A DNA stretch of 64,000 bases from Candidatus Omnitrophota bacterium (GTDB lineage Bacteria > Omnitrophota > Gorgyraeia > Gygaellales > Profunditerraquicolaceae). This document shows, piece by piece, positions 29,765-47,702 of this stretch. The stretch is taken from assembly GCA_028716245.1 (NCBI GenBank), contig JAQUQW010000003.1, positions 20,638 to 84,637 on the forward strand, read 5' to 3'. The notes below the pieces were generated by a model that worked only from the letters and a program-made list of their open reading frames with translations, was not told the DNA's origin and did not search any database. Position 1 is the first letter of the stretch. Every line of letters starts with the position of its first letter. Made by a program: the position numbers and the translations under genes.

Positions 29765-31960
29765 CTATTTAATGAACAGCATTTCGCGATACTTAGGCAA
29801 ATCCCAGGCATCATCGGAAACTACGCATTCCAGCTGGTCAACATGCTTTCGAATATGCTCCATCAAAGGTTTAAGCTCATCAAAATAAAGCTTGGCGCGT
29901 TTTTCATTGCTTAGCTTCCTAGCATCCTCAAGCAGCTTAACCATTTCACCAACATTTCTGCGCACATAATATATCTTAGCGACTATTTCAGCCAAATGTT
30001 CTTTTTTGTCTTTTAATGCCGCGATATCTACTTTTAAGCCGGCATCTTTCTGCAACTTGACCAACGCGTCCAGGTTTGCCGCCAACAATTTTTCATATTC
30101 ATAGCCTGCCGGCACTACCGAAGCATTAACCATTTCGTTTAAGGTATTGGCCTCGATTTCAAGAATCAAGTTATACATATGGACCCAGATATGGTAACGG
30201 GCAATCAACTCTTCTTTAGAGAAGACTTTGTACTTCTCAAAAAGGGCAATATTCTCTTTTTTGGTTAAAGCTTCCAGGGATTCATAAGTTGAAGCGATAT
30301 TCGGTAACCCTCGCTTCTTGGCTTCTTTAATCCATTCTTCCGCGTAGTTATTTCCTTCAAAGCGGATATCTTTGGTTTCTTTAACAATCTTGGAAATTAC
30401 CATTAACACCGCGGAATTAAAATCCTTTCCCGTAGATTTGGCCCGCTTGATCTGTTCAGCGACATAATCAAGGCTTTCAGCAATGATGGTATTGATTACC
30501 GCAATGGGTGTGGAGATATTCTGCGATGAACCGACGGCACGGAATTCAAACTTTGCGCCGGTAAAAGCAAAAGGCGAAGTACGGTTACGGTCAGTTGAGT
30601 CCTTGTTGAATTTAGGCAAGCGGGCTATGCCTAAATCAATAATATCAGCTTTAGAAACTTTAGACTTAACCCCTTTTTCAATCATATTTAAAATAGAGGT
30701 TAACTGCTCCCCTAAGAATACACTAATAATCGCCGGAGGGGCTTCATTAGCGCCTAAGCGGTGCTCGTTGCCGGCAAGGGCAACTGAAGCGCGCAATAAA
30801 TCGGCGTGCAGATAAACCGCCCTTAAAACCGCGGCTAGGACGGCTAAAAATTGTAAATTATCTTCCGGAGTCTGTCCCGGATTAAGTAAATTATCGCCTT
30901 TATCATCTGCCAGCGACCAGTTTAAATGCTTGCCGCTGCCGTTGATTCCGGCAAAAGGTTTCTCATGCAATAAACAAACCAGGCCATGGCGTAAAGCAAC
31001 TTTTTTCATCAATTCCATAAGCAACTGATTGTGATCGGCGGCAATATTTGATTCTTCAAATATCGGAGCAAATTCATACTGATGCGGGGCAACTTCATTG
31101 TGCCGGGTCATTACCGGTATACCCAATTTATAAGCCTCTTCAGCCACCTCAAACATAAAATTAACCACCCGCTCTTTAATCGTGCCGAAATACTGATCCT
31201 CTAACTGCTGGCCTTTAGGAGATGGCGCTCCAACCAGGGTCCGGCCGGTCATGATCAAATCCTGGCGTAAATTGTAATAGTTCTTATCGATCAGGAAATA
31301 TTCCTGCTCCGGCCCGCAGGTAGAAAATATCTTTTTTACATCTTTATGGCCGAAAAGTTTAATCAGGCCTAAAGCGGCATTGTTTAACGCTTCATCCGAA
31401 CGTAAAAGCGGCAGCTTCTTATCCAGGGCTTCTCCATGGTAAGAAATGAATATCGTGGGAATACAGAGAGTCTTACCGAGCTTGCTTTCAATAATAAATG
31501 CCGGGCTGGAAGGATCCCAAGCAGTATAACCTCTGGCTTCAAAGGTTGCCCGGATTCCTCCTGATGGAAAACTGGAGGCATCCGGTTCACCCTGGATTAA
31601 TTTATTCCCCGAGAATTTTTCGATTACTTTTCCCGGAGCGGTTATCGAAATAAAACTGTCATGCTTTTCCGCGGTAAGCCCGGTCATCGGCTGAAACCAG
31701 TGCGTATAATAAGTAGCGCCTTTTGCCATTGCCCAGTCTTTCATCGCGTTAGCAATCTCATTTGCCTGCGCTAAAGTTATGGTTTTACCTTCGGACATCC
31801 AGGTCTTGAATGCCTCAAAAGTACCTTTGGAAATATGCTTTTGCATGGTCTCGGTGCTGAAGGTATTCACACCGAAATAAGAAGAAACTTTTTTAGGAGA
31901 ATCTATTTTCTCTAATTCGGTACTTTTAATTTTAAATAAAACTTTCTGTCTTATACTCAT
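29765..31960 (-). CDS. glnN: glutamine synthetase type III
   Basis: 731 aa; GSIII-type N-terminal extension and catalytic domain; AGGAGG SD 6 nt upstream. Confidence 0.9.
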   Translation of the reverse strand: MSIRQKVLFKIKSTELEKIDSPKKVSSYFGVNTFSTETMQKHISKGTFEAFKTWMSEGKTITLAQANEIANAMKDWAMAKGATYYTHWFQPMTGLTAEKHDSFISITAPGKVIEKFSGNKLIQGEPDASSFPSGGIRATFEARGYTAWDPSSPAFIIESKLGKTLCIPTIFISYHGEALDKKLPLLRSDEALNNAALGLIKLFGHKDVKKIFSTCGPEQEYFLIDKNYYNLRQDLIMTGRTLVGAPSPKGQQLEDQYFGTIKERVVNFMFEVAEEAYKLGIPVMTRHNEVAPHQYEFAPIFEESNIAADHNQLLMELMKKVALRHGLVCLLHEKPFAGINGSGKHLNWSLADDKGDNLLNPGQTPEDNLQFLAVLAAVLRAVYLHADLLRASVALAGNEHRLGANEAPPAIISVFLGEQLTSILNMIEKGVKSKVSKADIIDLGIARLPKFNKDSTDRNRTSPFAFTGAKFEFRAVGSSQNISTPIAVINTIIAESLDYVAEQIKRAKSTGKDFNSAVLMVISKIVKETKDIRFEGNNYAEEWIKEAKKRGLPNIASTYESLEALTKKENIALFEKYKVFSKEELIARYHIWVHMYNLILEIEANTLNEMVNASVVPAGYEYEKLLAANLDALVKLQKDAGLKVDIAALKDKKEHLAEIVAKIYYVRRNVGEMVKLLEDARKLSNEKRAKLYFDELKPLMEHIRKHVDQLECVVSDDAWDLPKYREMLFIK

Positions 31961-32145: not shown

Positions 32146-32487
32146 TTACCCAATAGCTATTGCCCCGCGTTCTTCAGTTCTTATACGCACACACTCCTTA
32201 AGATCCAAAACAAAGATCTTGCCATCCCCGGTTTCACCGGTCTTAGCCCCTTTAACAATGGCTTTGATTGTCGGCTCAAGATAATTATCATTTACGGCAA
32301 TTTCAAGACGAATTTTACGCAAAAGGTTTCCGGTTTCCCTGGCCCCCCGATAAACTTCCGTCACGCCTTTCTGCCGGCCATGGCCTAGGACCTCGCTTAC
32401 CGTAAGCAAATTCACCTGCGCTTTATACAACTCTTCTTTTACTTCCTCTAATTTATACGGTTGAATTATCGCAATGACTAATTTCAT
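32146..32487 (-). CDS. glnK: nitrogen regulatory protein P-II
   Basis: 113 aa MKLVIAIIQPYK...; T-loop ...GRQKGVTEVYRG (Tyr51). AGGAGG SD before ATG 32487. The ORF-track TTG extension to 32523 translates the repeat element and is rejected. Confidence 0.9.
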   Translation of the reverse strand: MKLVIAIIQPYKLEEVKEELYKAQVNLLTVSEVLGHGRQKGVTEVYRGARETGNLLRKIRLEIAVNDNYLEPTIKAIVKGAKTGETGDGKIFVLDLKECVRIRTEERGAIAIG

Positions 32488-32499
32488 GTATCCCTCCTT

Positions 32500-32545
32500 G
32501 CCCACAAGGGCACACCCGCGCAATTCCTTATAAGCGCGGGGTGTT
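32500..32545 (-). repeat. GC-rich hairpin element copy 2 in amt-glnK intergenic region
   Basis: Identical to copy 1 over 45 nt; abuts the amt stop codon and the glnK SD. Confidence 0.6.
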
Positions 32546-33770
32546 ATTCTAAAATTGTATATGCGCGTTCACGATGCTGGGTAAGGTCAAGGCCAACCAG
32601 CTCATCCTTTTCGCTTACCCGCATCCTAAAGAAGACATCTACCAGTTTGTAAATAACGAAAGTGGCAAAGAAAGTGTAACTAACCGCAACCACAACCGCA
32701 ACTAATTGTATCAGCAGCTGTTTAGAATTACCATAGAATAATCCATTTGCGCCGGCCGGGTTAATTATCTTAGAAGCCAATACCCCTGTCAAAAGCGTGC
32801 CAAGTATCCCTCCGACGCCATGCACGCCAAAAGCATCCAAAGAATCATCATAACCAAACCGCGGTTTGGTTACGGCAACCGCGATAAAACAAATTATGCT
32901 GGCGGCAATCCCGATAATAATGGCTGAAATCGGGCTGACAAATCCTGAGGCAGGAGTAACAGTAGCAAGTCCTGCAATTGAACCGGTTACGATTCCAAAT
33001 ACCGTGGGCTTGCCATTACGGATCCACTCCAAAAATGCCCAGCTTAAACCCGCTGCTGCTGCGGCAGTATTGGTAGCAATAAAAGCGCTTACGGCAACTC
33101 CATTTACCGCTAAAGCGCTTCCGGCATTAAAACCATACCAGCCAAACCATAAAAGCGCAGTCCCCAAAACTACAAAAGGAAGATTATGCGGCGATGGCGT
33201 ATGCTCCAGGTTTTTTCGCTTACCGATAACAATCGTCGTAACTAAAGCGGCGATGCCTGCGCTGGTATGCACGACAATTCCTCCGGCAAAATCCAAGACA
33301 CCCAGGTTCCTGAGCCATCCGCCAACTCCCCAAACCCAGTGGCACAAAGGATCATAAACAAATGTTGCCCAGAGCAAAGTGAAAACTAAAAATGCCGAAA
33401 ACTTCATCCGCTCGGCAAAAGCGCCGATAATTAAAGCCGGAGTAATCACGGCAAACATCATCTGAAAAACCATAAATGCCTGATGCGGGATAGTCGCGGA
33501 ATAACCCGCGTAAGGAGTCGCCCCCACTCCGTTTAAGCCAAACCAACTAAGCCCTCCCCAAAATCCGTTGCCCGGGGCAAATGCAAGGCTGTAACCAAAA
33601 AGTATCCATTGCAAAGATAATAAACATAAGGCCACAAAACATTGCATTAAGACACTTAAGATATTCTTGCGCCTGACCATGCCGCCGTAGAAAAAAGCCA
33701 GGCCGGGGGTCATCAACATTACAAAGGCCGCCGACATCAAAACGAATAACGTATCTGCTTGATTAATCAT
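32544..33770 (-). CDS. amt: ammonium transporter Amt
   Basis: ~408 aa, 11 TM, Amt signature regions; GGGAGGTGAG SD favours ATG at 33770 (the ORF-track start 33782 lies within the SD). Confidence 0.9.
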   Translation of the reverse strand: MINQADTLFVLMSAAFVMLMTPGLAFFYGGMVRRKNILSVLMQCFVALCLLSLQWILFGYSLAFAPGNGFWGGLSWFGLNGVGATPYAGYSATIPHQAFMVFQMMFAVITPALIIGAFAERMKFSAFLVFTLLWATFVYDPLCHWVWGVGGWLRNLGVLDFAGGIVVHTSAGIAALVTTIVIGKRKNLEHTPSPHNLPFVVLGTALLWFGWYGFNAGSALAVNGVAVSAFIATNTAAAAAGLSWAFLEWIRNGKPTVFGIVTGSIAGLATVTPASGFVSPISAIIIGIAASIICFIAVAVTKPRFGYDDSLDAFGVHGVGGILGTLLTGVLASKIINPAGANGLFYGNSKQLLIQLVAVVVAVSYTFFATFVIYKLVDVFFRMRVSEKDELVGLDLTQHRERAYTILE

Positions 33771-33821
33771 CTCACCTCCCATAAATAGTTCTTTCTCTTA
33801 AGCCCCATTTCCCGATTAGCT

Positions 33822-33859
33822 TCGAAACAGTTTCCAAGTTGAAGCGGAAACTGTTTCGA
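33822..33859. repeat. perfect 14-bp inverted repeat (TCGAAACAGTTTCC-N10-GGAAACTGTTTCGA) ~50 nt upstream of amt
   Basis: Read directly from sequence. Confidence 0.5.
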
Positions 33860-33914
33860 TTAATTCCTCTTATACTACACAACTGGATAATCAACTGTGT
33901 AAAATTTGGGTAAA

Positions 33915-33960
33915 TAAAAAAGCGCCTTTACGGTTTTTTCTTAACCGTATTGGCGCCGAC
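33915..33960 (-). terminator. putative rho-independent terminator after second glnK
   Basis: Minus strand GGCGCCAAUACGG-loop-CCGUAAAGGCGC followed by UUUUUUAUUU. Confidence 0.35.
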
Positions 33961-34050
33961 ATTGCGCTATTCAATATAAACACTACAGCGTGCCTATATT
34001 AACTTATAATCATACAAGTAAACAATTGCTTGTTTTGGTAACTTAAATTT

Positions 34051-34392
34051 TTATCCTATCGCCGAGTTTCCCTGCTCTTCGGTGCGGATGCGGATACATT
34101 CCTTAAGATCCAGGATAAAGATTTTACCGTCGCCAGTTTCACCGGTCTTAGCCCCTTTAACAATAGCTTTGATTGTCTGGTCAAGGTAGTTATCATTCAC
34201 GGCAATCTCAAGACGAATTTTACGCAAAAGGTTTCCGGTTTCCTTCGAACCACGGTAAACTTCCGTCACGCCTTTCTGCCGGCCGTGCCCTAAAACTTCA
34301 CTTACGGTAATCAGGTTTACTTCCGCTTTATACAATTCTTCTTTTACTTCCTCTAATTTATACGGTTGAATTATCGCAATGACTAATTTCAT
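34051..34392 (-). CDS. glnK: nitrogen regulatory protein P-II (second copy)
   Basis: 113 aa, near-identical to the 32146 copy; Tyr51 present. Confidence 0.9.
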   Translation of the reverse strand: MKLVIAIIQPYKLEEVKEELYKAEVNLITVSEVLGHGRQKGVTEVYRGSKETGNLLRKIRLEIAVNDNYLDQTIKAIVKGAKTGETGDGKIFILDLKECIRIRTEEQGNSAIG

Positions 34393-34415
34393 AAAAACCT
34401 CCTTGTGAGAATCCA

Positions 34416-34457
34416 GGGGACGGTTCTGGAAAATCCAGAACCGTCCCCGTGTTTTTC
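34416..34457. repeat. perfect 12-bp hairpin GGGGACGGTTCTGG-AAAATCC-AGAACCGTCCCC with T-run, in amt-glnK intergenic region
   Basis: Read directly from sequence; occupies the same position as hairpin element copy 2 in the other amt-glnK pair. Confidence 0.5.
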
Positions 34458-34458
34458 G

Positions 34459-35688
34459 CTATTCTAATATGGTATACGCCCTCTCTCTATGCTGTGTCAG
34501 GTCAAGGCCCATAGCTTCTGACTTCTCATCCACCCTGACCCCGATAAAAATATCTACTAATTTGTAGATGATAAAGGTCATAACTCCCGTATAAACAACA
34601 GTTACCCCTACAGCTAAAAGCTGAACCAGGAACTGTTTGGGGTTACCAAAAAATACTCCGTTGGCACCGGCGGAATTAACCAGCTTGGAGGCAAATAACC
34701 CGGTAGCCAATGCCCCCCAAATTCCTCCGACACAATGCACGCCAAAAGCATCCAGCGAATCATCATAACCAAACAAAGGTTTGATTACGGTTACAGCGAT
34801 AAAACAAAATACACTTACCAATAAACCGATAATAATTGCCGGGATAACACTGACAAAACCCGCCGCTGGAGTAATCGCAACTAATCCGGCAACCGCGCCC
34901 GAACAAAGGCCGAAGATAGTCGGTTTACCATTACGGATCCACTCAATCAAAGCCCAACTTAAACCCGCGGCCGCCGCGGCAGTGTTGGTCACGACAAAAG
35001 CGTTTACCGCCAGGCCATTTGCCGCTAAAGCGCTTCCGGCATTAAAACCAAACCAGCCAAACCATAAAAGCGCCGTGCCTAAGACCACAAAAGGCATATT
35101 ATGCGGTGTAGGTACATTTTTCTCCAGGTTATTTCTTTTACCTAACACAATTGCCGTCACTAAAGCAGCGATACCGGCGTTGATGTGCACGACAGTGCCT
35201 CCGGCAAAATCCAAAGCTCCCAAATTCCTCAGCCATCCACCTATTCCCCAAACCCAGTGGCATAGAGGATTATAAACAAAGGTTGCCCAAAGCAGGGTAA
35301 AAATTAAAAAAGCCGAAAACTTCATCCTCTCGGCAAACGCACCGATGATTAAAGCCGGAGTGATTATCGCGAACATCGCCTGAAAGATCATAAAGGCCTG
35401 ATGCGGAATCGTTCCGGAGTAGTCCGCATAAGGCTCTAAACCTACTCCATTTAAACCCAGCCATTGCAGCCCTCCCCAGAATCCATTTCCCGGGTGAAAA
35501 GATAAACTATAACCCACCAAAACCCATTGCAGGCTTAAAACACACATAATGATAAAACATTGCATCAAAACACTTAACACATTCTTGCGCCTGACCATGC
35601 CGCCGTAGAAAAAAGCCAGGCCGGGAGTCATCAATAAAACCAGCGCTGATGAAATCAAAACCCACGCCGTATCGCCTGAATTAATCAT
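34459..35688 (-). CDS. amt: ammonium transporter Amt (second copy)
   Basis: 409 aa, paralogous to the 32544 copy. Confidence 0.9.
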   Translation of the reverse strand: MINSGDTAWVLISSALVLLMTPGLAFFYGGMVRRKNVLSVLMQCFIIMCVLSLQWVLVGYSLSFHPGNGFWGGLQWLGLNGVGLEPYADYSGTIPHQAFMIFQAMFAIITPALIIGAFAERMKFSAFLIFTLLWATFVYNPLCHWVWGIGGWLRNLGALDFAGGTVVHINAGIAALVTAIVLGKRNNLEKNVPTPHNMPFVVLGTALLWFGWFGFNAGSALAANGLAVNAFVVTNTAAAAAGLSWALIEWIRNGKPTIFGLCSGAVAGLVAITPAAGFVSVIPAIIIGLLVSVFCFIAVTVIKPLFGYDDSLDAFGVHCVGGIWGALATGLFASKLVNSAGANGVFFGNPKQFLVQLLAVGVTVVYTGVMTFIIYKLVDIFIGVRVDEKSEAMGLDLTQHRERAYTILE

Positions 35689-36774: not shown

Positions 36775-39700
36775 TCAACTAAAATTCCCAAAACGTTTCC
36801 GCAATTCTTCGATAGCAAATATCGATAGCATAAATAGAAATAATATCACCCAGTCCCCTGAGCTTAAACCCGTAGTATTGAATATCTTCTGAAAAAACGG
36901 CACGTAGATCAAGACGCAGGTAAAAATAAACGAAATGGCAATACTCCAGAAAATACGCATATTACTGAAAAACCCGATCCTAAATGTTGAATATTTTTCG
37001 CTGCGGCAATTAAAAACATTGGCGATTTGCATCACGACAATACCAACAAAAAGAATGGTCATTGCCTTCAGATGCAGCGGATTAGTAAAGGTAGTGTCAT
37101 TTGGCTCAAGCTGCATTCCGGGTTTCCATCCTCCCTGAAAAAGTATAAGATAATAGGAACCTAAGGTTGCCGCCGTGCTCAACAGCCCCAAAATGATATA
37201 ACCTCTAAAGAGCACCATTTTATCAATCACTCCTTTATTCTTAGGCCTTGGCGGAAGGTTCATTATCCCCGGCTCGGGTTTCTCCGCGCCTAAGGCCAAG
37301 GCGGGAAAAATCTCCGTGCCCAAATCAATAGCTAAAATCTGCAGTACGGCAATCGGCACGGGAATCTTAAATAAAACATAGAATATAAAAGGTATCCCCT
37401 CGGGTACAAGGTGGGCGAAGATATAGGTAATAAATTTCTTGATATTATCGAATACCGCCCGGCCCTCTTCAATAGCCGAAACGATACTGGCAAAATTATC
37501 GTCGAGCAGAACCATCTCGGCGGATTCTTTGGCCACGTCAGTCCCGCGCAGCCCCATCGCCACGCCAATATCGGAACGCTTAAGGGCAGGGGCATCGTTG
37601 ACGCCGTCTCCGGTCACCGCCACGATATTACCCATCTCCTTAAAAGTATTTACCACCCTTAATTTATGCTCGGGATTTGCCCTGGCAAAAATAATTTCTT
37701 TGCTGCCAACCTTCTCCTTTAATTGCTCATCGCTCATATGAATCAAATCTGTTCCGTTAATAACTTCGTAATTTTGCGAAGACACAATCCCTACCTGCCT
37801 GGCGATAGATAGGGCGGTTACCTGATAATCACCGGTAATCATCACCACGCGAATTCCGGCTTTTTTGCAAATCCCGACAGCATCTTTTACTTCCGGCCGG
37901 GGTGGATCATACATACCCGTGGCTCCGACAAAAACCAACTCTTTTTCAACCGACTGCGCCGTCGCCCCGGAAATATCCTTGGGATTAATTTTACAAAATG
38001 CAAAACCCAAAACCCTTAAACCTTCTTCGGCAAACCTCTCTACAGAAGCGGATATTTCCGATTTCTTCTCTACAGTCAAATCCGCGATATCGTTTCCAAG
38101 CATAACCTTATTACAAAGCTCCAGGATCTCTTTAGGAGAGCCCTTAACCAACGCATAAGTATCTCCATCGGGAAGAGTATGGATAGAGCTCATTCTCTTA
38201 CGTATCGATTCAAATGGAAAACGTTTTAGTACCGGATATTTTAGGCGCTCTTGGTCGGCGTCATAACCGGCTTTTCGCATTAAGGTCAATAATGCGGCTT
38301 CCGTCGGATCGCCAATAATACTCCAATACGTTATCGTCTCTGAGGGAGAATTTAGCTTTGCGGTATTGCATAATGCGCAAATATGCATCAGCTGATCAAA
38401 AGCAGCGCTCCGAAGAACATTTTTTAAAAGAACGCTGCCCTTACAAGTAAATTCTCCTGCCGGTTCATATCCGCTTCCGGAGGCTTCGATAACCTTATCA
38501 TCGATCCAAATTTTCCGGACACTCATTTGATTGGTTGTCAGCGTGCCGGTTTTATCCGTGCAAATAACGTTGGTACAACCCAACGTTTCTACTGAAGAAA
38601 GTTTTTTGATCAGGGCTTTCCGCTTAGCCATCCGCTGCACGGCCATGGCCAAGGCAAGGGTCAAAGTAGGCATGAGCCCCTGAGGAACATTGGCCGTAAT
38701 AATACCTATCGCAAACATTCCCGAAGCAAAAACCGTCAATTTAGTAAAAAATAAACCCGCAAAGAAAAAAACCAAACCCATAGCTACCGATATAAATGAA
38801 ATCAATTTGCCGATGCGATTGACCTCTCTTTGCAGCGGGCTGAGATCTTCTTTGACCGTCTGCGTCAGGTAGGCGATTTTACCAATCTCGGTCCCCATAC
38901 CCGTGGCAATGACCACCGCTTTTCCCATGCCTGAGGCAACGCTGGTTCCGGCAAAAACCAAATTAGGCATTTCCAGCCACAGAAAATCCTTTCCGTCATG
39001 AAATTCCTCTGAAAATTTATAGGCCAGCTTGGATTCTCCGGAGAAGGCGCTATTGTTCAAGCGTAATTCGGCAGCTTCGATCAACCTGGCATCCGCGGGG
39101 ACGTTATCTCCTTCCTCCAGCATAATGATATCTCCCGGGACAATCTCGCTTGTAGGCACGAGCTTCTCCTTGCCCTCCCTGATTAGACGGGCATTAGATG
39201 GAATCAGTTTGGAAAGCGCCTCAATCGCCTTCTCCGCTTTAAACTCCTGCCAAAAACTAAATATCGCGTTAATAAAGACTACGGCAATGCAGGCCCAACC
39301 TGCCTCCGGCATCTGCGCCCAAAAACAAAGGGCGCCGCAAATCCACATCATCACCGCCAGTAAATTAGTAAGATGGAGCGAGAACCTTATAATCAAGGGG
39401 GTTTTTTTAACGGCTTTCAATTTATTGGTTCCATATACCTCCAGCCGTTTTCCCGCGGAAACTTCAGAGATACCGTTATCGCTGCTTGCCAATTCAAGAT
39501 AAATCTCCTCTTTGCTTAAAGCGATAAAACCTTCTTTCTCGATTCCTCCATACTTTAAGGCCCGATAGAGCTCCTCGTTGGTTGAGCAGTTCAGGATCTG
39601 CCGGACAAATACTTTATTATCCAAGAGTACGGCCAGCTTCGATAAAATTTTAAGATGCATTTCGCTTTCTACCAGCGGAGTCAGAAAAAACATAACCAAA

Positions 39701-40029
39701 TGCACCGGCTTCTTGTCAATGGAAGAAAAATCTATTCCTTCCCTTGAGATGCCAACAAATATCAATCCCTCTTTTAGTTCAGCTATTCTAGCATGGGGGA
39801 TAGCTATGCCATCCCCGATTCCGGTACTGCCAAGCTTTTCCCTTTTGAGAAGGCTTTCTAAAACACGTTTTTTGTCTTTAATTTTGCGGCTTTTATAAAG
39901 CTGGTCGACAATCTCCCGGATTACACCTTCACTTGTACGGGATTTCAAGTTTACGCTTAATAGATCCTTATATACCAAATCCGCGATTTTCACTTCTTGC
40001 TCTCCTTTTATACCAGCGTTCTCATACAA
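36775..40029 (-). CDS. P-type cation-transporting ATPase with N-terminal PTS EIIA(Ntr)-like domain
   Basis: N-terminal ~150 aa: ...GIGDGIAIPHARI... (EIIA type-2 active-site His). Remainder: DKTGTLT phosphorylation motif, TGDGVNDAPAL, 8-10 TM. TTG start. Confidence 0.85.
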   Translation of the reverse strand: MYENAGIKGEQEVKIADLVYKDLLSVNLKSRTSEGVIREIVDQLYKSRKIKDKKRVLESLLKREKLGSTGIGDGIAIPHARIAELKEGLIFVGISREGIDFSSIDKKPVHLVMFFLTPLVESEMHLKILSKLAVLLDNKVFVRQILNCSTNEELYRALKYGGIEKEGFIALSKEEIYLELASSDNGISEVSAGKRLEVYGTNKLKAVKKTPLIIRFSLHLTNLLAVMMWICGALCFWAQMPEAGWACIAVVFINAIFSFWQEFKAEKAIEALSKLIPSNARLIREGKEKLVPTSEIVPGDIIMLEEGDNVPADARLIEAAELRLNNSAFSGESKLAYKFSEEFHDGKDFLWLEMPNLVFAGTSVASGMGKAVVIATGMGTEIGKIAYLTQTVKEDLSPLQREVNRIGKLISFISVAMGLVFFFAGLFFTKLTVFASGMFAIGIITANVPQGLMPTLTLALAMAVQRMAKRKALIKKLSSVETLGCTNVICTDKTGTLTTNQMSVRKIWIDDKVIEASGSGYEPAGEFTCKGSVLLKNVLRSAAFDQLMHICALCNTAKLNSPSETITYWSIIGDPTEAALLTLMRKAGYDADQERLKYPVLKRFPFESIRKRMSSIHTLPDGDTYALVKGSPKEILELCNKVMLGNDIADLTVEKKSEISASVERFAEEGLRVLGFAFCKINPKDISGATAQSVEKELVFVGATGMYDPPRPEVKDAVGICKKAGIRVVMITGDYQVTALSIARQVGIVSSQNYEVINGTDLIHMSDEQLKEKVGSKEIIFARANPEHKLRVVNTFKEMGNIVAVTGDGVNDAPALKRSDIGVAMGLRGTDVAKESAEMVLLDDNFASIVSAIEEGRAVFDNIKKFITYIFAHLVPEGIPFIFYVLFKIPVPIAVLQILAIDLGTEIFPALALGAEKPEPGIMNLPPRPKNKGVIDKMVLFRGYIILGLLSTAATLGSYYLILFQGGWKPGMQLEPNDTTFTNPLHLKAMTILFVGIVVMQIANVFNCRSEKYSTFRIGFFSNMRIFWSIAISFIFTCVLIYVPFFQKIFNTTGLSSGDWVILFLFMLSIFAIEELRKRFGNFS

Positions 40030-40067
40030 ATAAAAAACCAGAGAACGCTTTCCCTGGCATGTTCTCT
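40030..40067 (-). terminator. leader terminator hairpin (AGAGAAC-N14-GUUCUCU + U6) immediately upstream of ATPase start; overlaps alternative antiterminator
   Basis: Plus-strand 40040..40046 / 40061..40067 inverted repeat; U-run from 40039..40030 on minus strand; 3' arm AGCGUUCUC is also exactly complementary to codons 3-5 (GAGAACGCU). Confidence 0.4.
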
Positions 40068-40233
40068 CAAAATTGGCTTACGAGGTTAGCTGTCGGGCTC
40101 GGGTCGAGTAACCCTAATCTGATATTTCCAGATATTGGCCCCAAGATCATTTTAGTCGATCGGATTCTTGGATTCCCCGCTATCTTTTTAGATTCACATA
40201 CAAGTCTAAAAAAAGATTAAGCTTATTAAAATA

Positions 40234-40261
40234 AATATACCGCAAAAAATACCTTTGTCAA
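40234..40261 (-). promoter_or_regulatory. putative sigma70 promoter (-35 TTGACA, 16-nt spacer, -10 TATATT) driving ~200-nt leader of ATPase gene
   Basis: Read from minus strand: gcTTGACAaaggtattttttgcggTATATTtattt. Confidence 0.35.
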
Positions 40262-40299
40262 GCTCAAAACTTCTCTAATTTATTTAATAATGAATAAAA

Positions 40300-40479
40300 T
40301 TAATCTATGTTCAATGTTTCCCTGACTAATCTGGCATAAACTTTATTAATGTGCTTAGTCCTGAACCATCTTTCTATAGTAGTTACTTGGAGGTCGAGTT
40401 TCTTAGATAGATCGTAAAGAGTATACTTTCTTTCTTCTTTAAACTGTAAAAGTTTGCTAATTAATTCCGTATCCAACAT
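40300..40479 (-). CDS. small HTH protein (59 aa), paralog of 35709..35888; below ORF-track length cut-off
   Basis: Own translation: MLDTELISKLLQFKEERKYTLYDLSKKLDLQVTTIERWFRTKHINKVYARLVRETLNID; GGAGGA SD 7 nt upstream; precedes glnB-like gene. Confidence 0.5.
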   Translation of the reverse strand: MLDTELISKLLQFKEERKYTLYDLSKKLDLQVTTIERWFRTKHINKVYARLVRETLNID

Positions 40480-40495
40480 CTAGAAATTCCTCCGG

Positions 40496-40834
40496 CTATA
40501 CCGCGTCCTCTCCTTTTTCATCGGTGCGGATTCTGATTGCGTTATCTGCCGGATAAACAAATATTTTACCATCCCCCACCTTCCCGGTAAAAGCAGCTTC
40601 GCGCATAGCTTTGATTGTCTTATCCAAATCCCGGTCATTGACCACAACCTCAAGTTTTGCCTTGCTCAGTAATTCTGTTTTATAGGTTTTGCCGCGGAAT
40701 TCCTGCTCTATGCCTTTTTGTTTGCCGTGCCCTTCGATTTCAGTAATCATAATCCCCGGATGTCCAACCTTCTCCAGGGCAGCGCACACATCGCCGACTT
40801 TTGCGGGACGAATTATAGCTTCTATCTTTTTCAT
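40496..40834 (-). CDS. P-II family nitrogen regulatory protein (third; Phe at T-loop position 51)
   Basis: 112 aa; ...GHGKQKGIEQEFRGKTY... T-loop with F instead of Y. Confidence 0.85.
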   Translation of the reverse strand: MKKIEAIIRPAKVGDVCAALEKVGHPGIMITEIEGHGKQKGIEQEFRGKTYKTELLSKAKLEVVVNDRDLDKTIKAMREAAFTGKVGDGKIFVYPADNAIRIRTDEKGEDAV

Positions 40835-40902
40835 AGTCTCACCCCTTTATTAGGAATCGATATCTGTCTAAAAAATGACTGCTAAACTCAAAAAGAGCGT
40901 TT

Positions 40903-42225
40903 CTAAAAAGTAAACAAGATGTCCCCGCCTAACATCAACTGACCTTTATCCTTGTTGTCAAAGACCTTGCGGTTAGCCCAGTCATAGCGGACTTCCGGCC
41001 TTAGCAGCAAATTAGATAAAATCTTGTCTTTTGGAAACGGCTTGATAGCCACGCCCACTGTGGACTCGTAGTAATTGGCACCGGTGGATGCGCCAGTAGC
41101 AAAACCATTGGATGAATCGTTGTACCATTCCAACCGCCCATTAAGCGTGAAGTGTGGATCGAAAGCATAGCTTACATAGCCATCCACGGCTCCCCATTGC
41201 TTGGTGCCATTTTTTAAGCCGGGGATCTGCGGAGCGTCAACATAGTCAAGGCCTGTACCCAGGCTCAATTTGTCGGTTACCTTCTGTGTTACCACCAAAT
41301 CCAACGCAGTCCACCAATGTTTGTTGTCGCCAGCAGGTAAATTACTTCCTACAGCTATAGGGTATTCCGGACCTTCAGTCATAACGAAAATAACGCAAGT
41401 CTTATCGCTAGGCGTATAGGTAACGCGGCCCAAGAAGTCAGAAGTACCATTAGAATCCCGCGTTGACTGGTTCCAACCCCGTGTAAGGCCGGCGTCAAAG
41501 GTCCATTGAGGATTCAATATATAGGTAGCAAAGGCCCCTGTCTGCGTACCCGGCTCCGCATAGAGGAACGAGTAGCTATAGGAATATAGTGCCCTGGATG
41601 GATCTCCGAATGCGCCATATATGTTGGCGTCGAATTGCTCAAAACCGGCAAGTTCAATCCATTTTCCGACGCGAATTTTCATAGGCACATAAGGCAGCGC
41701 TACGTCTACGTATGCTTCCAGAGGATCCCATTGGTAGCGTCCGGTCTGCGTAGCAACAAGGCCGTTTGAATGTATCCATTTTGAATCAAAACCCCAGATA
41801 GTCTTCGAACGAAAACCCCAGTCAAGCTGTCTCTTAGAAGGATCTACTGTCCGCTCAATAGTTAAACCAATCTTGTCAAGAAGCGGGGTGTTCTTTAAGT
41901 TATTGAATCCCATAAAGGTCTGGCCCTTTTTTGGTACTGTACTATCGTACATGTAACCGGCTTGGCTGTAGCCATAGATGTTAATCCCAAGTTTGCTCAA
42001 AGGGTTAGCCAGTCCTGCCTTGTCCAAAATACTCATCAATGGCGCAAGCGAAGGTGTAGCCGCTGGCGCAGGTGTGGCCGCAGGCGCAGCTGCTGGTGCC
42101 ATATTGCCGGCATCCTCCGCCAAAACAGAAGGAATATTTACTCCAAGAAAACATAATCCCAAAAATATTACTACCATACTACCGCTTACGATACCTTTAA
42201 ATATACTCCCAAACTTCTCCATCAT
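40903..42225 (-). CDS. putative outer-membrane beta-barrel porin
   Basis: Signal peptide, Ala/Pro-rich linker, alternating amphipathic strands, C-terminal ...ILFTF. Confidence 0.45.
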   Translation of the reverse strand: MMEKFGSIFKGIVSGSMVVIFLGLCFLGVNIPSVLAEDAGNMAPAAAPAATPAPAATPSLAPLMSILDKAGLANPLSKLGINIYGYSQAGYMYDSTVPKKGQTFMGFNNLKNTPLLDKIGLTIERTVDPSKRQLDWGFRSKTIWGFDSKWIHSNGLVATQTGRYQWDPLEAYVDVALPYVPMKIRVGKWIELAGFEQFDANIYGAFGDPSRALYSYSYSFLYAEPGTQTGAFATYILNPQWTFDAGLTRGWNQSTRDSNGTSDFLGRVTYTPSDKTCVIFVMTEGPEYPIAVGSNLPAGDNKHWWTALDLVVTQKVTDKLSLGTGLDYVDAPQIPGLKNGTKQWGAVDGYVSYAFDPHFTLNGRLEWYNDSSNGFATGASTGANYYESTVGVAIKPFPKDKILSNLLLRPEVRYDWANRKVFDNKDKGQLMLGGDILFTF

Positions 42226-42239
42226 TTTTCTCCTTCCTC

Positions 42240-42560
42240 TTAAACAACTGCCTTATCCATTTTTTCTTTTGTACGTATACGAATGCAGTTATCCAATGGC
42301 ATTACAGCGACTTTGCCGTCACCGGCATGGCCGGAAAAACATTCTTTTAAGATTACGGCCAGAATTTCATTTACCTGAGAATCAAGGGCATAAACCTCGA
42401 TCTTGGTTTTATGCACAAAAAGGAAACTTTCCGGCCTTATGCTCTGGATGCCAAAACCACGCACTTCACTTACTGTCATTCCCCCTATCCCGGCTCCCAG
42501 CAGCGCCTCAGTCAGCTCTTTTAGTTTTTCCGAACGGATAATGCATTCTATCTTCTTCAT
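42240..42560 (-). CDS. divergent P-II-like protein (fourth)
   Basis: 106 aa; P-II fold pattern MKKIECIIRSEKL...GDGKVAVMPLDNCIRIRT with atypical T-loop. Confidence 0.6.
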   Translation of the reverse strand: MKKIECIIRSEKLKELTEALLGAGIGGMTVSEVRGFGIQSIRPESFLFVHKTKIEVYALDSQVNEILAVILKECFSGHAGDGKVAVMPLDNCIRIRTKEKMDKAVV

Positions 42561-42584
42561 GATTTCACGCTACATTTATGTTGT

Positions 42585-44453
42585 CTATATTGCCCAAACC
42601 CCTTGTTCTCCTGTTCGGATACGCATAGCTTCCGATGCATCGGTCACGAAGATCTTACCGTCACCGACATTACCGGTACAGGCGGCCTCCTTTATAATAT
42701 CCATTATTTGAGGAACATCCCATTCTTTAACTACGACATCAATCCTAATCTTGGGGATAAAACTAATTTTATCACTTTCCGGCTCTCCATCAAGGTGTCC
42801 TTTTTGCCTGCCGAACCCCTTTACTTTTGTAACAGTCATGCCTAGAATACAGTCGTCCTCTTTAAGGGCCTGCACCACAATATTCAACTGTTCCGGACGG
42901 ATCATGCCAGATACCATTTTTAAGCGGTATGTTTTTCGCACGGTAGTTACTGCAACATAGATAATACTTATCAGAGCCCATCCTCCGGCGAACATAAAGC
43001 AAATCTTTGCTTCTGACTTGGCATCGGCATTACCAATAATATATAGGTAAAGGATACCTATGGTCATAACAACATTGGCAATGACGCCTGCCACAGGAAT
43101 AATACCATGCTTTAAAAGATTAAAATCTTCCCTGCCCTTGAATGCCACAATAGTCCATACACAGGTCAGGCCATAAAGTATGAATGTTCCTAGGTTTGAA
43201 GCAAGAGTAATACCCGTTAGCCCGACTACTGACCGAACGCCAATAGCCCCGACTACTGAAGTAATCAGGATCAAGGTTGCAAGGGAAACATGTGGGGTAA
43301 TATACTTAGTATGTATAAAACCTAGCGAGGAAGGCAGCTCTCTGTCCTCTGCCATACCAGCACTCACACGCATTGCCGTATTCATACAGCTTAAGGTTGT
43401 TCCGATTACCGCAATGGCTACAGTAATTGCCATAGTAATCATTAAACCAAATCCCAAGCCATGGAACAGAGAATCTCCGATCAACTTGGCTAGGTCTCCG
43501 ATTGGAGCGCCTGATGCCGCGGCAGCAGCCATACCGGTTACCGTGGTGGTACCAGTAGTATTGACTAACTTCTCACTAATCATAAAGCTTGCGCCGAAAT
43601 ACTCAAACAGATAAGCAAACAACCCCTGGACAATAAGAGAAATGATAATCGCCTTAGGAATTGTTGATTGAGGGTTTTTTGTTTCAGCTGCTAAAGCTGT
43701 GCAGCTTTCAAAACCAACCAGGATTAAAATAGCTATGGTCGACTGAACCAAAATACCCTGCAAGGAATGTATCCTAATAATATCCACACCTCCGCTAAAA
43801 ACCCATTGCGCTGCGTGTTGGGGATTAGCAATACGGTACCAGATGGCTAAGGCGGTAAAGATAATTAAGGTAATCCATTGGATAACATTGATCCAGATTG
43901 CTACCACCGTTGAGCCTGTCACTCCCCGGTAGGCTATATAGCCGGTAACAACTGTAAATGCAATACCGATAACAGTCATATTCATTATCGATAAAGTATG
44001 CCCGGTAAACTGTGTATAAATATAACCGATAAGAGTCGCCATCATCGCGACCATAACTCCCGGATAAACCCAATAGAAAAGATGCGCTGCCCAACCAGTA
44101 ACAAGCTTAGCTATGCGGGCCATTGAAGTGGGGCCGCTGACTTTCTCCTTGCGAGCGTCCAAGAAAGCCTTTTCCGCAAAGTAGGTGCAGCTGGCAAAAC
44201 CCGCCTCAGGATAAATTTTTGCAAGTTCCGAATAGGATAGGGCTGTCAAAAAACATACGGTCAGAGCAAGCGCAATACCTGCCCAGATATCGCTTGCAAC
44301 AGATGCCCCGCTTGGCGCACTAGCAGCGGCTTGCAGCTGATAGGTAATCCACAAAAATGCCCCTGGGGCAATCAAGGCCATCGCGTTCATCGCCGCACCT
44401 AATAACCCCAGCTTAGGTTTTACTAGAGATAAGTCATTTTGATTTTGTGCCAT
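42585..44453 (-). CDS. APC-superfamily transporter with C-terminal P-II domain
   Basis: ~500 aa 12-TM permease then ...MIRPEQLNIVVQALKEDDCILGMTVTKVKGFGRQKGH...GDGKIFVTDASEAMRIRTGEQG (P-II fold). Confidence 0.7.
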   Translation of the reverse strand: MAQNQNDLSLVKPKLGLLGAAMNAMALIAPGAFLWITYQLQAAASAPSGASVASDIWAGIALALTVCFLTALSYSELAKIYPEAGFASCTYFAEKAFLDARKEKVSGPTSMARIAKLVTGWAAHLFYWVYPGVMVAMMATLIGYIYTQFTGHTLSIMNMTVIGIAFTVVTGYIAYRGVTGSTVVAIWINVIQWITLIIFTALAIWYRIANPQHAAQWVFSGGVDIIRIHSLQGILVQSTIAILILVGFESCTALAAETKNPQSTIPKAIIISLIVQGLFAYLFEYFGASFMISEKLVNTTGTTTVTGMAAAAASGAPIGDLAKLIGDSLFHGLGFGLMITMAITVAIAVIGTTLSCMNTAMRVSAGMAEDRELPSSLGFIHTKYITPHVSLATLILITSVVGAIGVRSVVGLTGITLASNLGTFILYGLTCVWTIVAFKGREDFNLLKHGIIPVAGVIANVVMTIGILYLYIIGNADAKSEAKICFMFAGGWALISIIYVAVTTVRKTYRLKMVSGMIRPEQLNIVVQALKEDDCILGMTVTKVKGFGRQKGHLDGEPESDKISFIPKIRIDVVVKEWDVPQIMDIIKEAACTGNVGDGKIFVTDASEAMRIRTGEQGVWAI

Positions 44454-45295: not shown

Positions 45296-46981
45296 TTAAC
45301 CGCGATACTTATTGGTAATCGGCATGCGCCTGTCCCGGCCAAAGGCTTTAGGCGTGATCTTGATACCCGGAGGAGACTGCCTGCGTTTATATTCATTTTT
45401 ATCCACCATACCTACGGTCTTATTAACAATTTCTTTATCAAAACCTAAAGAAATAATTTTCGCTAAATCCTTATCTTCCTCAACATAGGCTTTGAGGATC
45501 GCATCCAGGGTTTCATAAGGCGGCAAAGTATCCTGATCCTTTTGGTTTGGCTTTAGTTCGGCAGTAGGGGCCTTGGTAAATACGCGCTCAGGGATAACCT
45601 GACAGATAGAATTCCGGTATCGGGATAATTTATAAACTAATGTTTTGGGCACATCTTTTATCACGGCAAGGCCGCCGGCCATATCGCCATAAAGAGTGGC
45701 GTAACCTGTGCTCATCTCCGATTTATTTCCGGTAGTCAAAACCAGCCAGCCGAACTTGTTGGAAAAAGCCATCAGGATATTGCCTCTTATGCGCGCCTGC
45801 AGGTTCTCCTCGGCTGTATCCCTTGCCAAACCTGTAAAATGCGGCTCAAGCACCAACAGGTAAAACCTGAATATTTGTTCGATAGAAATAGTGATAAATT
45901 TAATCCCTAAATTTCTCGCTAGCGCGATAGCGTCTTCATGTGACTGGTTGGAAGAATAGCGCGAAGGCATAAATACGCCGGTAACATTTTCTCGGCCCAA
46001 AGCATCAACCGCTAGTGTTGCCACAAGAGAAGAGTCAATCCCGCCGCTTAAACCGATTATAACTTTTCCGAAATCGTTTTTAAGCACGTAATCCTTTAAT
46101 CCTAAAACTAATGCCTGATAAACCTCAGCTGCCGGTTCTAAAATTTTAGGCTCTTGCCGGATAGCTATTTTTTTCTTTGCCGGTGCCTTTGTGCTTGAGA
46201 TTCTAATTATCTTTTTAGAAAACCTTATTCTCCTTACGGGAATAGCTAAATCCTGAATTAATAAATCTTCCGCAAAGGCCTTGGCGCAGGCCAGCATCTT
46301 ACCCTTATTATCAACAATCATACTCTGGCCGTCAAATACCAGCTCGTCCTGGCCACCGACAAGGTTAGCGTAAACAACAAATACCTTGTTAGTCTTGGCT
46401 TGATTGGTAATGATCGCCTGCCTTTCCTTAAATTTAGCCGCATAATAGGGAGAAGCATTGATATTCAGGATTAATTTTGCTCCCGATGCTGCCTGCGATT
46501 TTGTCGGCCCGTCCGGATACCAGATATCTTCGCAGATATTTACCCCAAAGATAAAATCGCGGAGTCCAAAAACCAGAGATTTATTCCCGGGGTCAAAATA
46601 ACGCCGCTCATCAAAAACCCCGTAATTGGGCAGAAAAATTTTACGATACACCCCTTTAATTTGCCTGTTATAAATTATCGCGGCGGCATTGTATGTTTCT
46701 TTAAACCTGCCATCAGCAAAACCCACAATCGCTACAACATTACCATTGATATTTTTTGCCAAATTTTCTAAGGCATCGATATTATCGCTGATAAATTTTG
46801 GTTTTAACAGGAGATCTTCGGGAGGGTATCCGCAAAGCGCCAATTCCGGAAAACAGATTATATCTGTGCCGTAATCTTTTGCTTTTTCGATATAGCGGAT
46901 GATTTTAGCGGCATTTCCCTGCAGGTCGCCGACAGTGGAATTTACCTGCGCGATTGCTACGCGTAAAGACTTATCTTTCAT
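45296..46981 (-). CDS. nadE: glutamine-dependent NAD+ synthetase (nitrilase + synthetase domains)
   Basis: 561 aa; N-terminal CN-hydrolase domain (E...K...C triad region) and C-terminal SGGIDSS PP-loop. Confidence 0.85.
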   Translation of the reverse strand: MKDKSLRVAIAQVNSTVGDLQGNAAKIIRYIEKAKDYGTDIICFPELALCGYPPEDLLLKPKFISDNIDALENLAKNINGNVVAIVGFADGRFKETYNAAAIIYNRQIKGVYRKIFLPNYGVFDERRYFDPGNKSLVFGLRDFIFGVNICEDIWYPDGPTKSQAASGAKLILNINASPYYAAKFKERQAIITNQAKTNKVFVVYANLVGGQDELVFDGQSMIVDNKGKMLACAKAFAEDLLIQDLAIPVRRIRFSKKIIRISSTKAPAKKKIAIRQEPKILEPAAEVYQALVLGLKDYVLKNDFGKVIIGLSGGIDSSLVATLAVDALGRENVTGVFMPSRYSSNQSHEDAIALARNLGIKFITISIEQIFRFYLLVLEPHFTGLARDTAEENLQARIRGNILMAFSNKFGWLVLTTGNKSEMSTGYATLYGDMAGGLAVIKDVPKTLVYKLSRYRNSICQVIPERVFTKAPTAELKPNQKDQDTLPPYETLDAILKAYVEEDKDLAKIISLGFDKEIVNKTVGMVDKNEYKRRQSPPGIKITPKAFGRDRRMPITNKYRG

Positions 46982-47702
46982 TTTTCTTGGCTCTTATGTC
47001 TTTTGCCAAAATAATCGCTTCGGCCACCTGGCGCATGGATTTTCGCATATCCATACTTTGCTTCTGGATCAAGCGATATGCCTCTGAAGGTAGAATATTA
47101 GCTTCTTGAGAAAGGATATCCTTTGCCCGCTCGACTAATTTACGAATATTCAAAGCCTCTTCTGCCGAGCGAACGCGTAAATCCAGCTCCGCGTTTTCAA
47201 TGGCAATCGCTGCCTGGTTTGCCAAAGCCGTCAAAAGATCCAATTCGTGTTTAGAAAATTTGTGCTTTTTAGAAGTATAGCAGTTAAGCGCTCCGATAAC
47301 TCTTCCCTTCACTGCCAACGGCACACAGGCCAAAGAACAAAGGCCCTCTTTTTTAGCCAGATCCTGGTTTAGATAGCGGCCGTCGGTTTTAACATCCAAA
47401 ATACACACCGGCTTGTTGTCTCTGGCAACCACGCCGGCTATGCCCTCGCCTAAACGGATATTGGGCTTTTTATTGTAGGCCTCAGATATTGACTGCGTAG
47501 CTTTAACTACCAGCTCCTTCTTATCCGGATCAAGCAACATCAAAGAAGAAATCTTAGAGCTCATAATTTCAGCGGTAACCTGCACAACCAGGCGCAACAG
47601 TTCTTCAAGGTACATACCTGAAGTAATCAGGTTGGCTACTTTAGAAATTGCCTCGATCTGTTTTACGTAAACCTGAAAATTATCTTTCTTTTTGGCAGCC
47701 AT
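46971..47702 (-). CDS. GAF-ANTAR RNA-binding antitermination regulator
   Basis: N-terminal GAF-like domain; C-terminal ANTAR ...ALNIRKLVERAKDILSQEANILPSEAYRLIQKQSMDMRKSMRQVAEAII. Confidence 0.7.
   Translation of the reverse strand: MAAKKKDNFQVYVKQIEAISKVANLITSGMYLEELLRLVVQVTAEIMSSKISSLMLLDPDKKELVVKATQSISEAYNKKPNIRLGEGIAGVVARDNKPVCILDVKTDGRYLNQDLAKKEGLCSLACVPLAVKGRVIGALNCYTSKKHKFSKHELDLLTALANQAAIAIENAELDLRVRSAEEALNIRKLVERAKDILSQEANILPSEAYRLIQKQSMDMRKSMRQVAEAIILAKDIRAKKNER

Follow-up and report, generated by a model that had tools for sequence, protein, structure and literature searches.

Riboswitches of the cyclic di-AMP (c-di-AMP) class bind c-di-AMP selectively, two molecules of it, and bring about ligand-dependent termination of transcription. 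Those of the ydaO/yuaA class switch off the transcription of K+ uptake systems, the P-type ATPase Kdp among them (PMC6488665, PMC9337991, PMC7266159); cases in point are the leader of kdpFABC in Bacillus thuringiensis (PMC6488665) and a tandem switch of Dehalobacter (PMC9337991), where c-di-AMP promotes termination. Here, a leader carrying an aptamer of this class is described in a 64-kb stretch of contig JAQUQW010000003.1 from a Candidatus Omnitrophota bacterium (the whole stretch is referred to as the window), where it precedes a gene coding for a P2-type cation ATPase with an N-terminal EIIA domain. With high confidence the leader can be regarded as a c-di-AMP riboswitch provided with a terminator-type expression platform, and it very probably switches the downstream gene off by ending transcription prematurely. 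As an RNA element it is an ordinary member of Rfam family RF00379, which teaches nothing new on RNA regulation; its unusual aspect is the gene that it controls, an EIIA-fused ATPase resembling the Na+/K+ pumps.

The aptamer, whose coordinates are collected in Table 1 with those of the other features, matches RF00379 with 72.2 bits and E = 9e-17, the gathering score of the family being 38; the match extends over model positions 1-134 of 134, is not truncated, and RF00379 is the sole Rfam family at gathering score across the whole window. All the conserved cores of the aptamer were found (CGGGGAAUCCA, UUGGGG, UAGGG and CCCGAGCCCGACAGCUAACCUCGUAAGC), together with insertions in two of its variable hairpins. 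A scan of 39800..40500 with permissive filters, up to E <= 1, yielded no family besides RF00379, Mg2+ sensors included. A preliminary description, made from the sequence only, had indicated this region as a candidate leader of riboswitch type, with pairings that exclude each other and a terminator at its end, and had suggested an Rfam scan; the match recovered by that scan and the terminator platform bear out this general proposal. The minimum-free-energy fold of the whole leader was uninformative (z = -0.66) and did not recover the aptamer, as is expected of a pseudoknotted, ligand-dependent RNA.

The aptamer lies in the untranslated 5' region (5'-UTR), on the same strand as the gene, with a promoter upstream and the expression platform and the gene downstream; the minus strand was read from 40600 to 39700 for checking the elements. 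The putative sigma-70 promoter of the preliminary description is indeed present, matching 11/12 consensus positions in a promoter scan, and similar elements (TTGAC(A/T)-N16-17 followed by a -10 box) occur at the equivalent spot before the aptamer in the orthologous loci L001, L002, L003, L005 and L006. Transcription probably starts at about 40227, some 7 nt past the TATATT box, which gives a leader of ~235 nt up to the start codon instead of the ~200 nt first estimated. The start codon also had to be moved: TTG 40029, previously taken as a start lacking a Shine-Dalgarno (SD) sequence, is merely the first start-type codon in the open frame. The orthologue N-termini, MKI(S/A)DL (MKISDL, MKIADL and similar), all align to GTG 39993, and this codon is preceded, with a spacing of 6 nt, by the strong SD AGGAGAG; on the evidence of these alignments, therefore, GTG 39993 is the true start codon. 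An antisense open reading frame (ORF) on the plus strand (39933..40220) gave no Pfam match and was treated as spurious.

Relatives of the gene were found with the first 300 residues of the protein and with an alignment of relatives, and 90 loci were fetched; a metagenome scan returned 6 loci, 3 of them useful. RF00379 occurs directly upstream of the gene in 12/12 orthologues having at least 57% identity, with scores of 60.8-94.1 bits (72-94 for L001-L007, 83-85 for L081-L083, 79 for L087 and 61 for L088); these belong to metagenome-assembled genomes (MAGs) of Omnitrophota, Phycisphaerae, Anaerohalosphaeraceae and Planctomycetota. It was absent from all the scanned EIIA-ATPase fusions at 49% identity or less, coming from Fibrobacterota, Brocadiaceae, deltaproteobacterial MAGs and Nitrospirota. 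The expression platform of the window is shared by L001, L004, L081, L082, L083, L087 and L088, and these eight leaders, the window included, are referred to as Omnitrophota-type. A different platform was observed between the aptamer and the ATG in L002, L003, L005, L006 and L007 (Phycisphaerae/Planctomycetota-type): its terminator is CUGCC-loop-GGCAG followed by U7, its tail (A)UGGCA is complementary to the terminator 5' arm, and past the terminator there is a conserved AUUGCGCUCCUUUGCCC, whose UUGCCC complements the tail GGGCAA and whose CCUUU can pair with the AAAGG before the start codon. This last element may be an added translational layer.

The terminator of the window is a hairpin with a 9-pair stem and a 4-nt loop, GCCAGGGAA-AGCG-UUCUCUGGU, which directly abuts the U-tract; folded alone it has -9.7 kcal/mol (z = -3.5), and it was the only terminator-like site in a scan of 39500..41000. 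The preliminary description had assigned this role to AGAGAAC-N14-GUUCUCU + U6, whose arms, 14-nt gap and U6 are all present; however, the better terminator is nested inside it, and the terminator role of the larger hairpin is not confirmed. The nested hairpin is kept as CCAG(A/G)GA...CUCUGG in the other seven Omnitrophota-type leaders, and the longer form CCAG(A/G)GAA...UUCUCUGG is found in all leaders of this type except L088. A U-run follows directly in all the conserved leaders except L083, and is interrupted in L001 (UUUAGUUUUU). The L083 leader (L083:2950-3000) is near-identical to those of L081 and L087; it retains the CCAGAGAA/UUCUCUGG hairpin, followed by CUAUUGCUUUUU with no adjoining U-tract, and its termination may be weakened.

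The last hairpin of the aptamer has in its loop CUCGA, complementary to UUGAG in the 3' tail, and the two can form a pseudoknot of 5 pairs, one G-U among them. Loop-tail complementarity of 4-8 pairs is present also in 11 related leaders: the other leaders with the Omnitrophota-type platform have 4-7 pairs, the Phycisphaerae-type ones have 8 (CUUUCAA(A/G) with UUUGAAAG), and the complementarity covaries between clades. The crystallised T. tengcongensis construct shows the equivalent register, CUCCUUCG/CGAAGGAG (sequence from PMC5393176). In the window, the UUGAG tail shares 2 nt (40067 and 40066) with the strand AGAGAAC.

This strand is part of a purine-rich stretch of the tail, next to the pseudoknot strand on its 3' side, that complements the loop-proximal nucleotides and the 3' arm of the terminator; with the terminator 5' arm blocked in a constrained fold, the AGAGAAC/GUUCUCU helix has -7.4 kcal/mol. 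An equivalent tail helix of 6-8 pairs, overlapping the pseudoknot strand by 2-3 nt, is found in 8/8 Omnitrophota-type leaders: AGAGAAC/GUUCUCU in the window and L001, GAGAAUGU/ACAUUCUC in L004, GAGAAUG/CAUUCUC in L082, GAAUGU/ACAUUC in L081, L083 and L087, and AGAGAG/CUCUCU in L088. The comparison reveals a double compensatory change, from tail AC with loop GU (window, L001) to tail UG with loop CA (L004, L081, L082, L083, L087); since the nucleotides concerned lie in the terminator loop, this change is hard to explain without a real pairing of the tail. Because the helix overlaps the pseudoknot strand and excludes the terminator, it is best read as an antiterminator, a role towards which we lean on balance. 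MAFFT alignments of platforms and aptamers misaligned the variable hairpins, so formal pair counting was set aside and pairings were judged by per-sequence constrained folds and complement searches. A classical antiterminator against the terminator 5' arm was not seen by eye in the Omnitrophota-type leaders; the sole complement, UCUGG in an aptamer hairpin, is not conserved.

The mechanism proposed for the window is thus a three-way competition between pseudoknot, terminator and tail helix. At high c-di-AMP the aptamer would bind its ligand and the tail UUGAG would stay paired with the loop CUCGA in the pseudoknot, leaving a remainder of the tail too short to compete; the terminator hairpin would form before the U6, and RNA polymerase would terminate near 40032. 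At low c-di-AMP the pseudoknot would be unlocked and the free AGAGAAC would pair with GUUCUCU, that is with part of the terminator loop and with the 3' arm, so that the terminator could not be completed and transcription would read through into the gene; the read-through RNA would then be translated from GTG 39993 by means of AGGAGAG. The off direction is suggested because it is the one published for the class (PMC6488665, PMC9337991). The platform would represent a compact example of an aptamer pseudoknot tail competing for the terminator 3' arm.

Several observations weigh against this mechanism. The pseudoknot of the window is weaker than most, having 5 pairs with a G-U among them as compared with 8 in the crystallised RNA. 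The nearest-neighbour model, from which pseudoknot and ligand are absent, gives the terminator an advantage over the tail helix of 1.7 kcal/mol in the whole leader, with pair probabilities of 92% and 7%, respectively, and of 1.4-5.3 kcal/mol in the eight isolated platforms. The antiterminator must then win kinetically, or else something is missing from the model of the ligand-free state. As to the former, the tail helix would nucleate one nucleotide earlier and with a G-C pair, the terminator starting with two A-U pairs that close the tetraloop; alternatively, the ligand-free fold may draw in more of the aptamer. The support from covariation is also thin, coming from 8 sequences and possibly from one evolutionary event. 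Finally, no DisA_N-type domain was found among the scanned ORFs of the window, which covers 64 kb of the genome, and no diadenylate cyclase gene was seen among them.

The thermodynamic preference for the terminator, which makes it the default state, speaks for a switch of different logic, in which the aptamer is genuine and control is also, or mainly, translational (for instance through pairing of the U-tract with the SD), or in which the ligand turns the gene on. In the same direction point the full-length fold, where the SD is predicted to be buried in a helix with the U-tract and its nucleotides are 2-13% unpaired, the retention of the L083 hairpin without an adjoining U-tract, and the anti-SD-like CCUUU...AAAGG hairpin past the terminator of Phycisphaerae-type leaders. 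However, in a leader rich in AT such pairing of U-rich with purine-rich stretches arises trivially, and the characterised members of the class in the literature covered are termination off switches (PMC6488665, PMC9337991), which leaves this alternative unlikely. In folds of the full-length leader, the U-tract and the next U-rich stretch pair with AUAAAAGGAGAGC (region 40038..39999, minus strand); this predicted pairing could be a translational brake on the read-through RNA, or mere complementarity between U and purines.

The preliminary description had put forward another geometry, with AGAGAAC-N14-GUUCUCU + U6 as terminator and GAGAACGCU, located past the U-tract, as an antiterminator that would also bury the start codon. 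Both pairings exist: the complementarity between AGCGUUCUC and GAGAACGCU is exact, 9/9, and their helix is the most stable local one (-13.5 kcal/mol in isolation); at least 9 contiguous pairs with the terminator segment arose in only 0.3% of 20,000 dinucleotide shuffles of the downstream 60 nt (p ~0.003). In a fold of the full-length leader, however, this helix has a pairing probability of ~0. Since the 9-mer is transcribed only after the U-tract, when the termination decision has passed, it cannot be a co-transcriptional antiterminator; nor is it among "codons 3-5", because with the start at GTG 39993 it belongs to the 5'-UTR, and the start codon, ~22 nt beyond the helix, is not engulfed by it. 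The earlier reading had been tied to conservation in orthologous leaders, and the complementarity is absent from 7/7 leaders of the same type, whose best downstream complements measure 4-7 nt and are mostly A/U runs. The role as co-transcriptional antiterminator was thus rejected on position, conservation and predicted occupancy, and this geometry, whose hairpin has the better terminator nested in it, appears highly improbable. The 9-mer may have been added in this lineage and act on read-through transcripts; alternatively, it may be left over from a local duplication of the segment GAGAAC...GC..GG.

Antitermination mediated by a protein had been considered as well, in view of a "nearby" GAF-ANTAR regulator. 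The gene exists on the same strand, ~7 kb upstream, in a nitrogen-assimilation cluster and not adjacent to the leader. Targets of ANTAR proteins consist of two tandem stem-loops, each with a hexaloop in which the first position is a conserved A and the fourth a conserved G; the second of them overlaps a terminator. After the aptamer of the window the only hairpins are the one with the tetraloop and the alternative one with the 14-nt loop, with no tandem hexaloop pair, and the riboswitch aptamer fully accounts for the leader; the chances of this explanation are slight indeed. A cation-sensing leader (Mg2+ or K+) like that of Salmonella mgtA, the precedent cited in the preliminary description, or like the M-box would fit a downstream P-type ATPase and can nevertheless be practically dismissed, as only RF00379 matches 39800..40500 at E <= 1 and the ATPase is nearest to the Na,K/H,K pumps, not of MgtA type.

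The regulated gene product has a PTS_EIIA_2 domain at residues 9-147, in which His67 of the GIAIPHAR motif is invariant among relatives, followed by the Pfam domains Cation_ATPase_N, E1-E2_ATPase, Cation_ATPase, Hydrolase and Cation_ATPase_C. The best NCBIfam model was TIGR01106 (IIC Na,H/K ATPase subfamily), with 617 bits, and the best PDB matches were the alpha subunits of Na,K- and H,K-ATPase (524 bits), followed by Listeria LMCA1 (484) and SERCA (453). The ion-site motifs in transmembrane segments (TM) 4, 5 and 6 are PQGL, HLVPE and DLGTE, to be compared with the canonical PEGL, SNIPE and DLGTD; by these residues and by the TIGR01106 cutoff of 946 bits the protein falls outside the P2C alpha subunits, which are its nearest family by sequence all the same. 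The window, L001-L007 and L081 have PQGL, while PEGL occurs in the riboswitch-bearing L082 and in all the fusions devoid of the riboswitch; the Brocadiaceae and deltaproteobacterial fusions have the Na,K-ATPase-like SNIPE and DLGTD in TM5 and TM6. The differences in the three motifs hint at an altered ion specificity. Since other targets of c-di-AMP riboswitches include KimA, KtrAB and KdpFABC, the pump would most likely, by analogy, import K+, possibly exporting Na+, and would be made only at low c-di-AMP, under K+ or osmotic need.

It is tentatively proposed that the riboswitch marks an uncharacterised family of EIIA(Ntr)-type/Na+/K+-ATPase-like pumps, with the E-to-Q change in TM4 confined almost exactly to the riboswitch clade, as a member of the c-di-AMP regulon. 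For transporters that are uncharacterised, association with a riboswitch is a reliable pointer to function, and the present association, strictly conserved before the EIIA-fused pump in lineages that are uncultivated (Omnitrophota, Phycisphaerae, Planctomycetota), leads to the prediction that P2C-like ATPases of bacteria act in K+/Na+ or osmotic homeostasis and that the EIIA-fused ATPase integrates c-di-AMP with a phosphorylation signal of the phosphotransferase system (PTS) type. Should it be a pump for K+ (or Na+/K+), c-di-AMP would act on its transcription and a PTS-type phosphorelay on the finished protein, and two signalling systems of K+ homeostasis would be tied together in Omnitrophota and Planctomycetota. 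A literature search, in which the original gene-association lists of the class were not covered, found no paper in which a P2-type or EIIA-fused ATPase is connected with a riboswitch for c-di-AMP.

Among the scanned unfused relatives, only L056, from a MAG labelled Betaproteobacteria, carries RF00379: an 83.9-bit c-di-AMP riboswitch (L056:3733-3863), followed by a terminator, stands before an ORF that begins at ~3940 and codes for an unfused Na,K-ATPase-like ATPase with the motifs TSNVPE and IDLGTD. This locus is a second, independent link of the riboswitch class with P2C-like pumps. The EIIA module, too, apparently travels with another ion pump: on a groundwater contig (L089/L090:1501-2025) a stand-alone EIIA, 68% identical to the EIIA domain of the window, directly follows an H+-pyrophosphatase gene, and no riboswitch was found at that locus.

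Upstream of the leader is a run of genes on the same strand (Table 1), among which the fusion of a permease with P-II is unusual. Besides the nitrogen genes listed, the window holds further P-II genes and Pst/PhoU genes; a 1462-aa ORF (54827..59215, minus strand) had no Pfam match at E <= 1e-5.

Table 1. Coordinates of the riboswitch leader, its gene and neighbouring features in the window.
Feature	Position	Strand	Details and basis
Sigma-70-type promoter	40234..40261	minus	-35 TTGACA 40261..40256, 16-nt spacer, -10 TATATT 40239..40234
c-di-AMP riboswitch aptamer (RF00379, ydaO/yuaA class)	40059..40233	minus	Rfam match, read 40233..40059
Pseudoknot strand CUCGA	40104..40108	minus	Loop of last aptamer hairpin; complementarity to tail
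Pseudoknot strand UUGAG	40066..40070	minus	Aptamer 3' tail; complementarity to loop
Tail helix, reinterpreted as candidate antiterminator	40040..40067	minus	AGAGAAC (40067..40061)/GUUCUCU (40046..40040); constrained folds, orthologues
Intrinsic terminator	40032..40058	minus	Stem GCCAGGGAA/UUCUCUGGU, loop AGCG (40058..40037), into U6 (40037..40032)
Downstream 9-mer GAGAACGCU	40015..40023	minus	Exact complement of AGCGUUCUC (40049..40041); 5'-UTR, 3' of U-tract
SD AGGAGAG and GTG start	SD 40006..40000, GTG 39993..39991	minus	Sequence; orthologue N-termini
EIIA-fused P2-type cation ATPase, 1072 aa	36775..39993	minus	Pfam, NCBIfam and PDB matches
59-aa ORF, no family match	40479..40300	minus	Upstream run
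P-II gene	40834..40496	minus	Upstream run
OmpL-like BBP2 porin	42225..40903	minus	Upstream run
P-II gene	42560..42240	minus	Upstream run
APC-family permease, C-terminal P-II fusion	44453..42585	minus	Directly upstream gene run (40496..44453)
GAF-ANTAR regulator	46971..47702	minus	Adjoins glutamine-dependent NAD synthase, nitrogen-assimilation region
GOGAT	24684..29252		Nitrogen gene
GS-III	29765..31960		Nitrogen gene
Two Amt-GlnK pairs	32146..35688		Nitrogen genes

Among the known systems, the Salmonella mgtA leader is similar in that it is long, precedes a P-type ATPase and uses alternative stem-loops to control transcription elongation; it has no relation in sequence or structure to the leader of the window, which gave no corresponding Rfam match, and both ligand and ATPase subfamily differ. 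The control of KdpD and TrkA by EIIA-Ntr (PtsN) in Proteobacteria (PMC9239096) likewise involves an EIIA-2 domain with a phosphorylatable His linked to a cation pump; unlike PtsN, which is a separate protein, the EIIA of the window is covalently fused to the pump, no genes for PTS-Ntr partners were seen among the ORFs of the window, and the link between the two systems is one that we infer. With the founding members of the class, the ydaO (kimA) and yuaA (ktrA) leaders of B. subtilis (PMC7266159), the leader of the window shares the aptamer consensus, the location in the 5'-UTR, the terminator platform and the association with genes of cation and osmotic homeostasis, while the target gene differs; moreover, the proposed antiterminator of the window targets the 3' arm of the terminator, not the 5' arm, for which the tail appears to compete in the Phycisphaerae-type leaders (L002-L006).

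The nearest functional parallel is the c-di-AMP riboswitch of kdpFABC in B. thuringiensis (PMC6488665), although Kdp is of the unrelated P1A type. There, as in the window, a canonical intrinsic terminator stands after an RF00379 aptamer and a P-type ATPase pump is controlled, by a transcriptional off switch that is established in B. thuringiensis and probable here. Kdp is a multi-subunit P1A-type K+ pump, whereas the Omnitrophota-like host of the window encodes a single-chain P2-type pump, similar to the Na,K/H,K-ATPases and bearing an N-terminal EIIA, under an aptamer that has a shorter, 5-pair pseudoknot and two large hairpin insertions.

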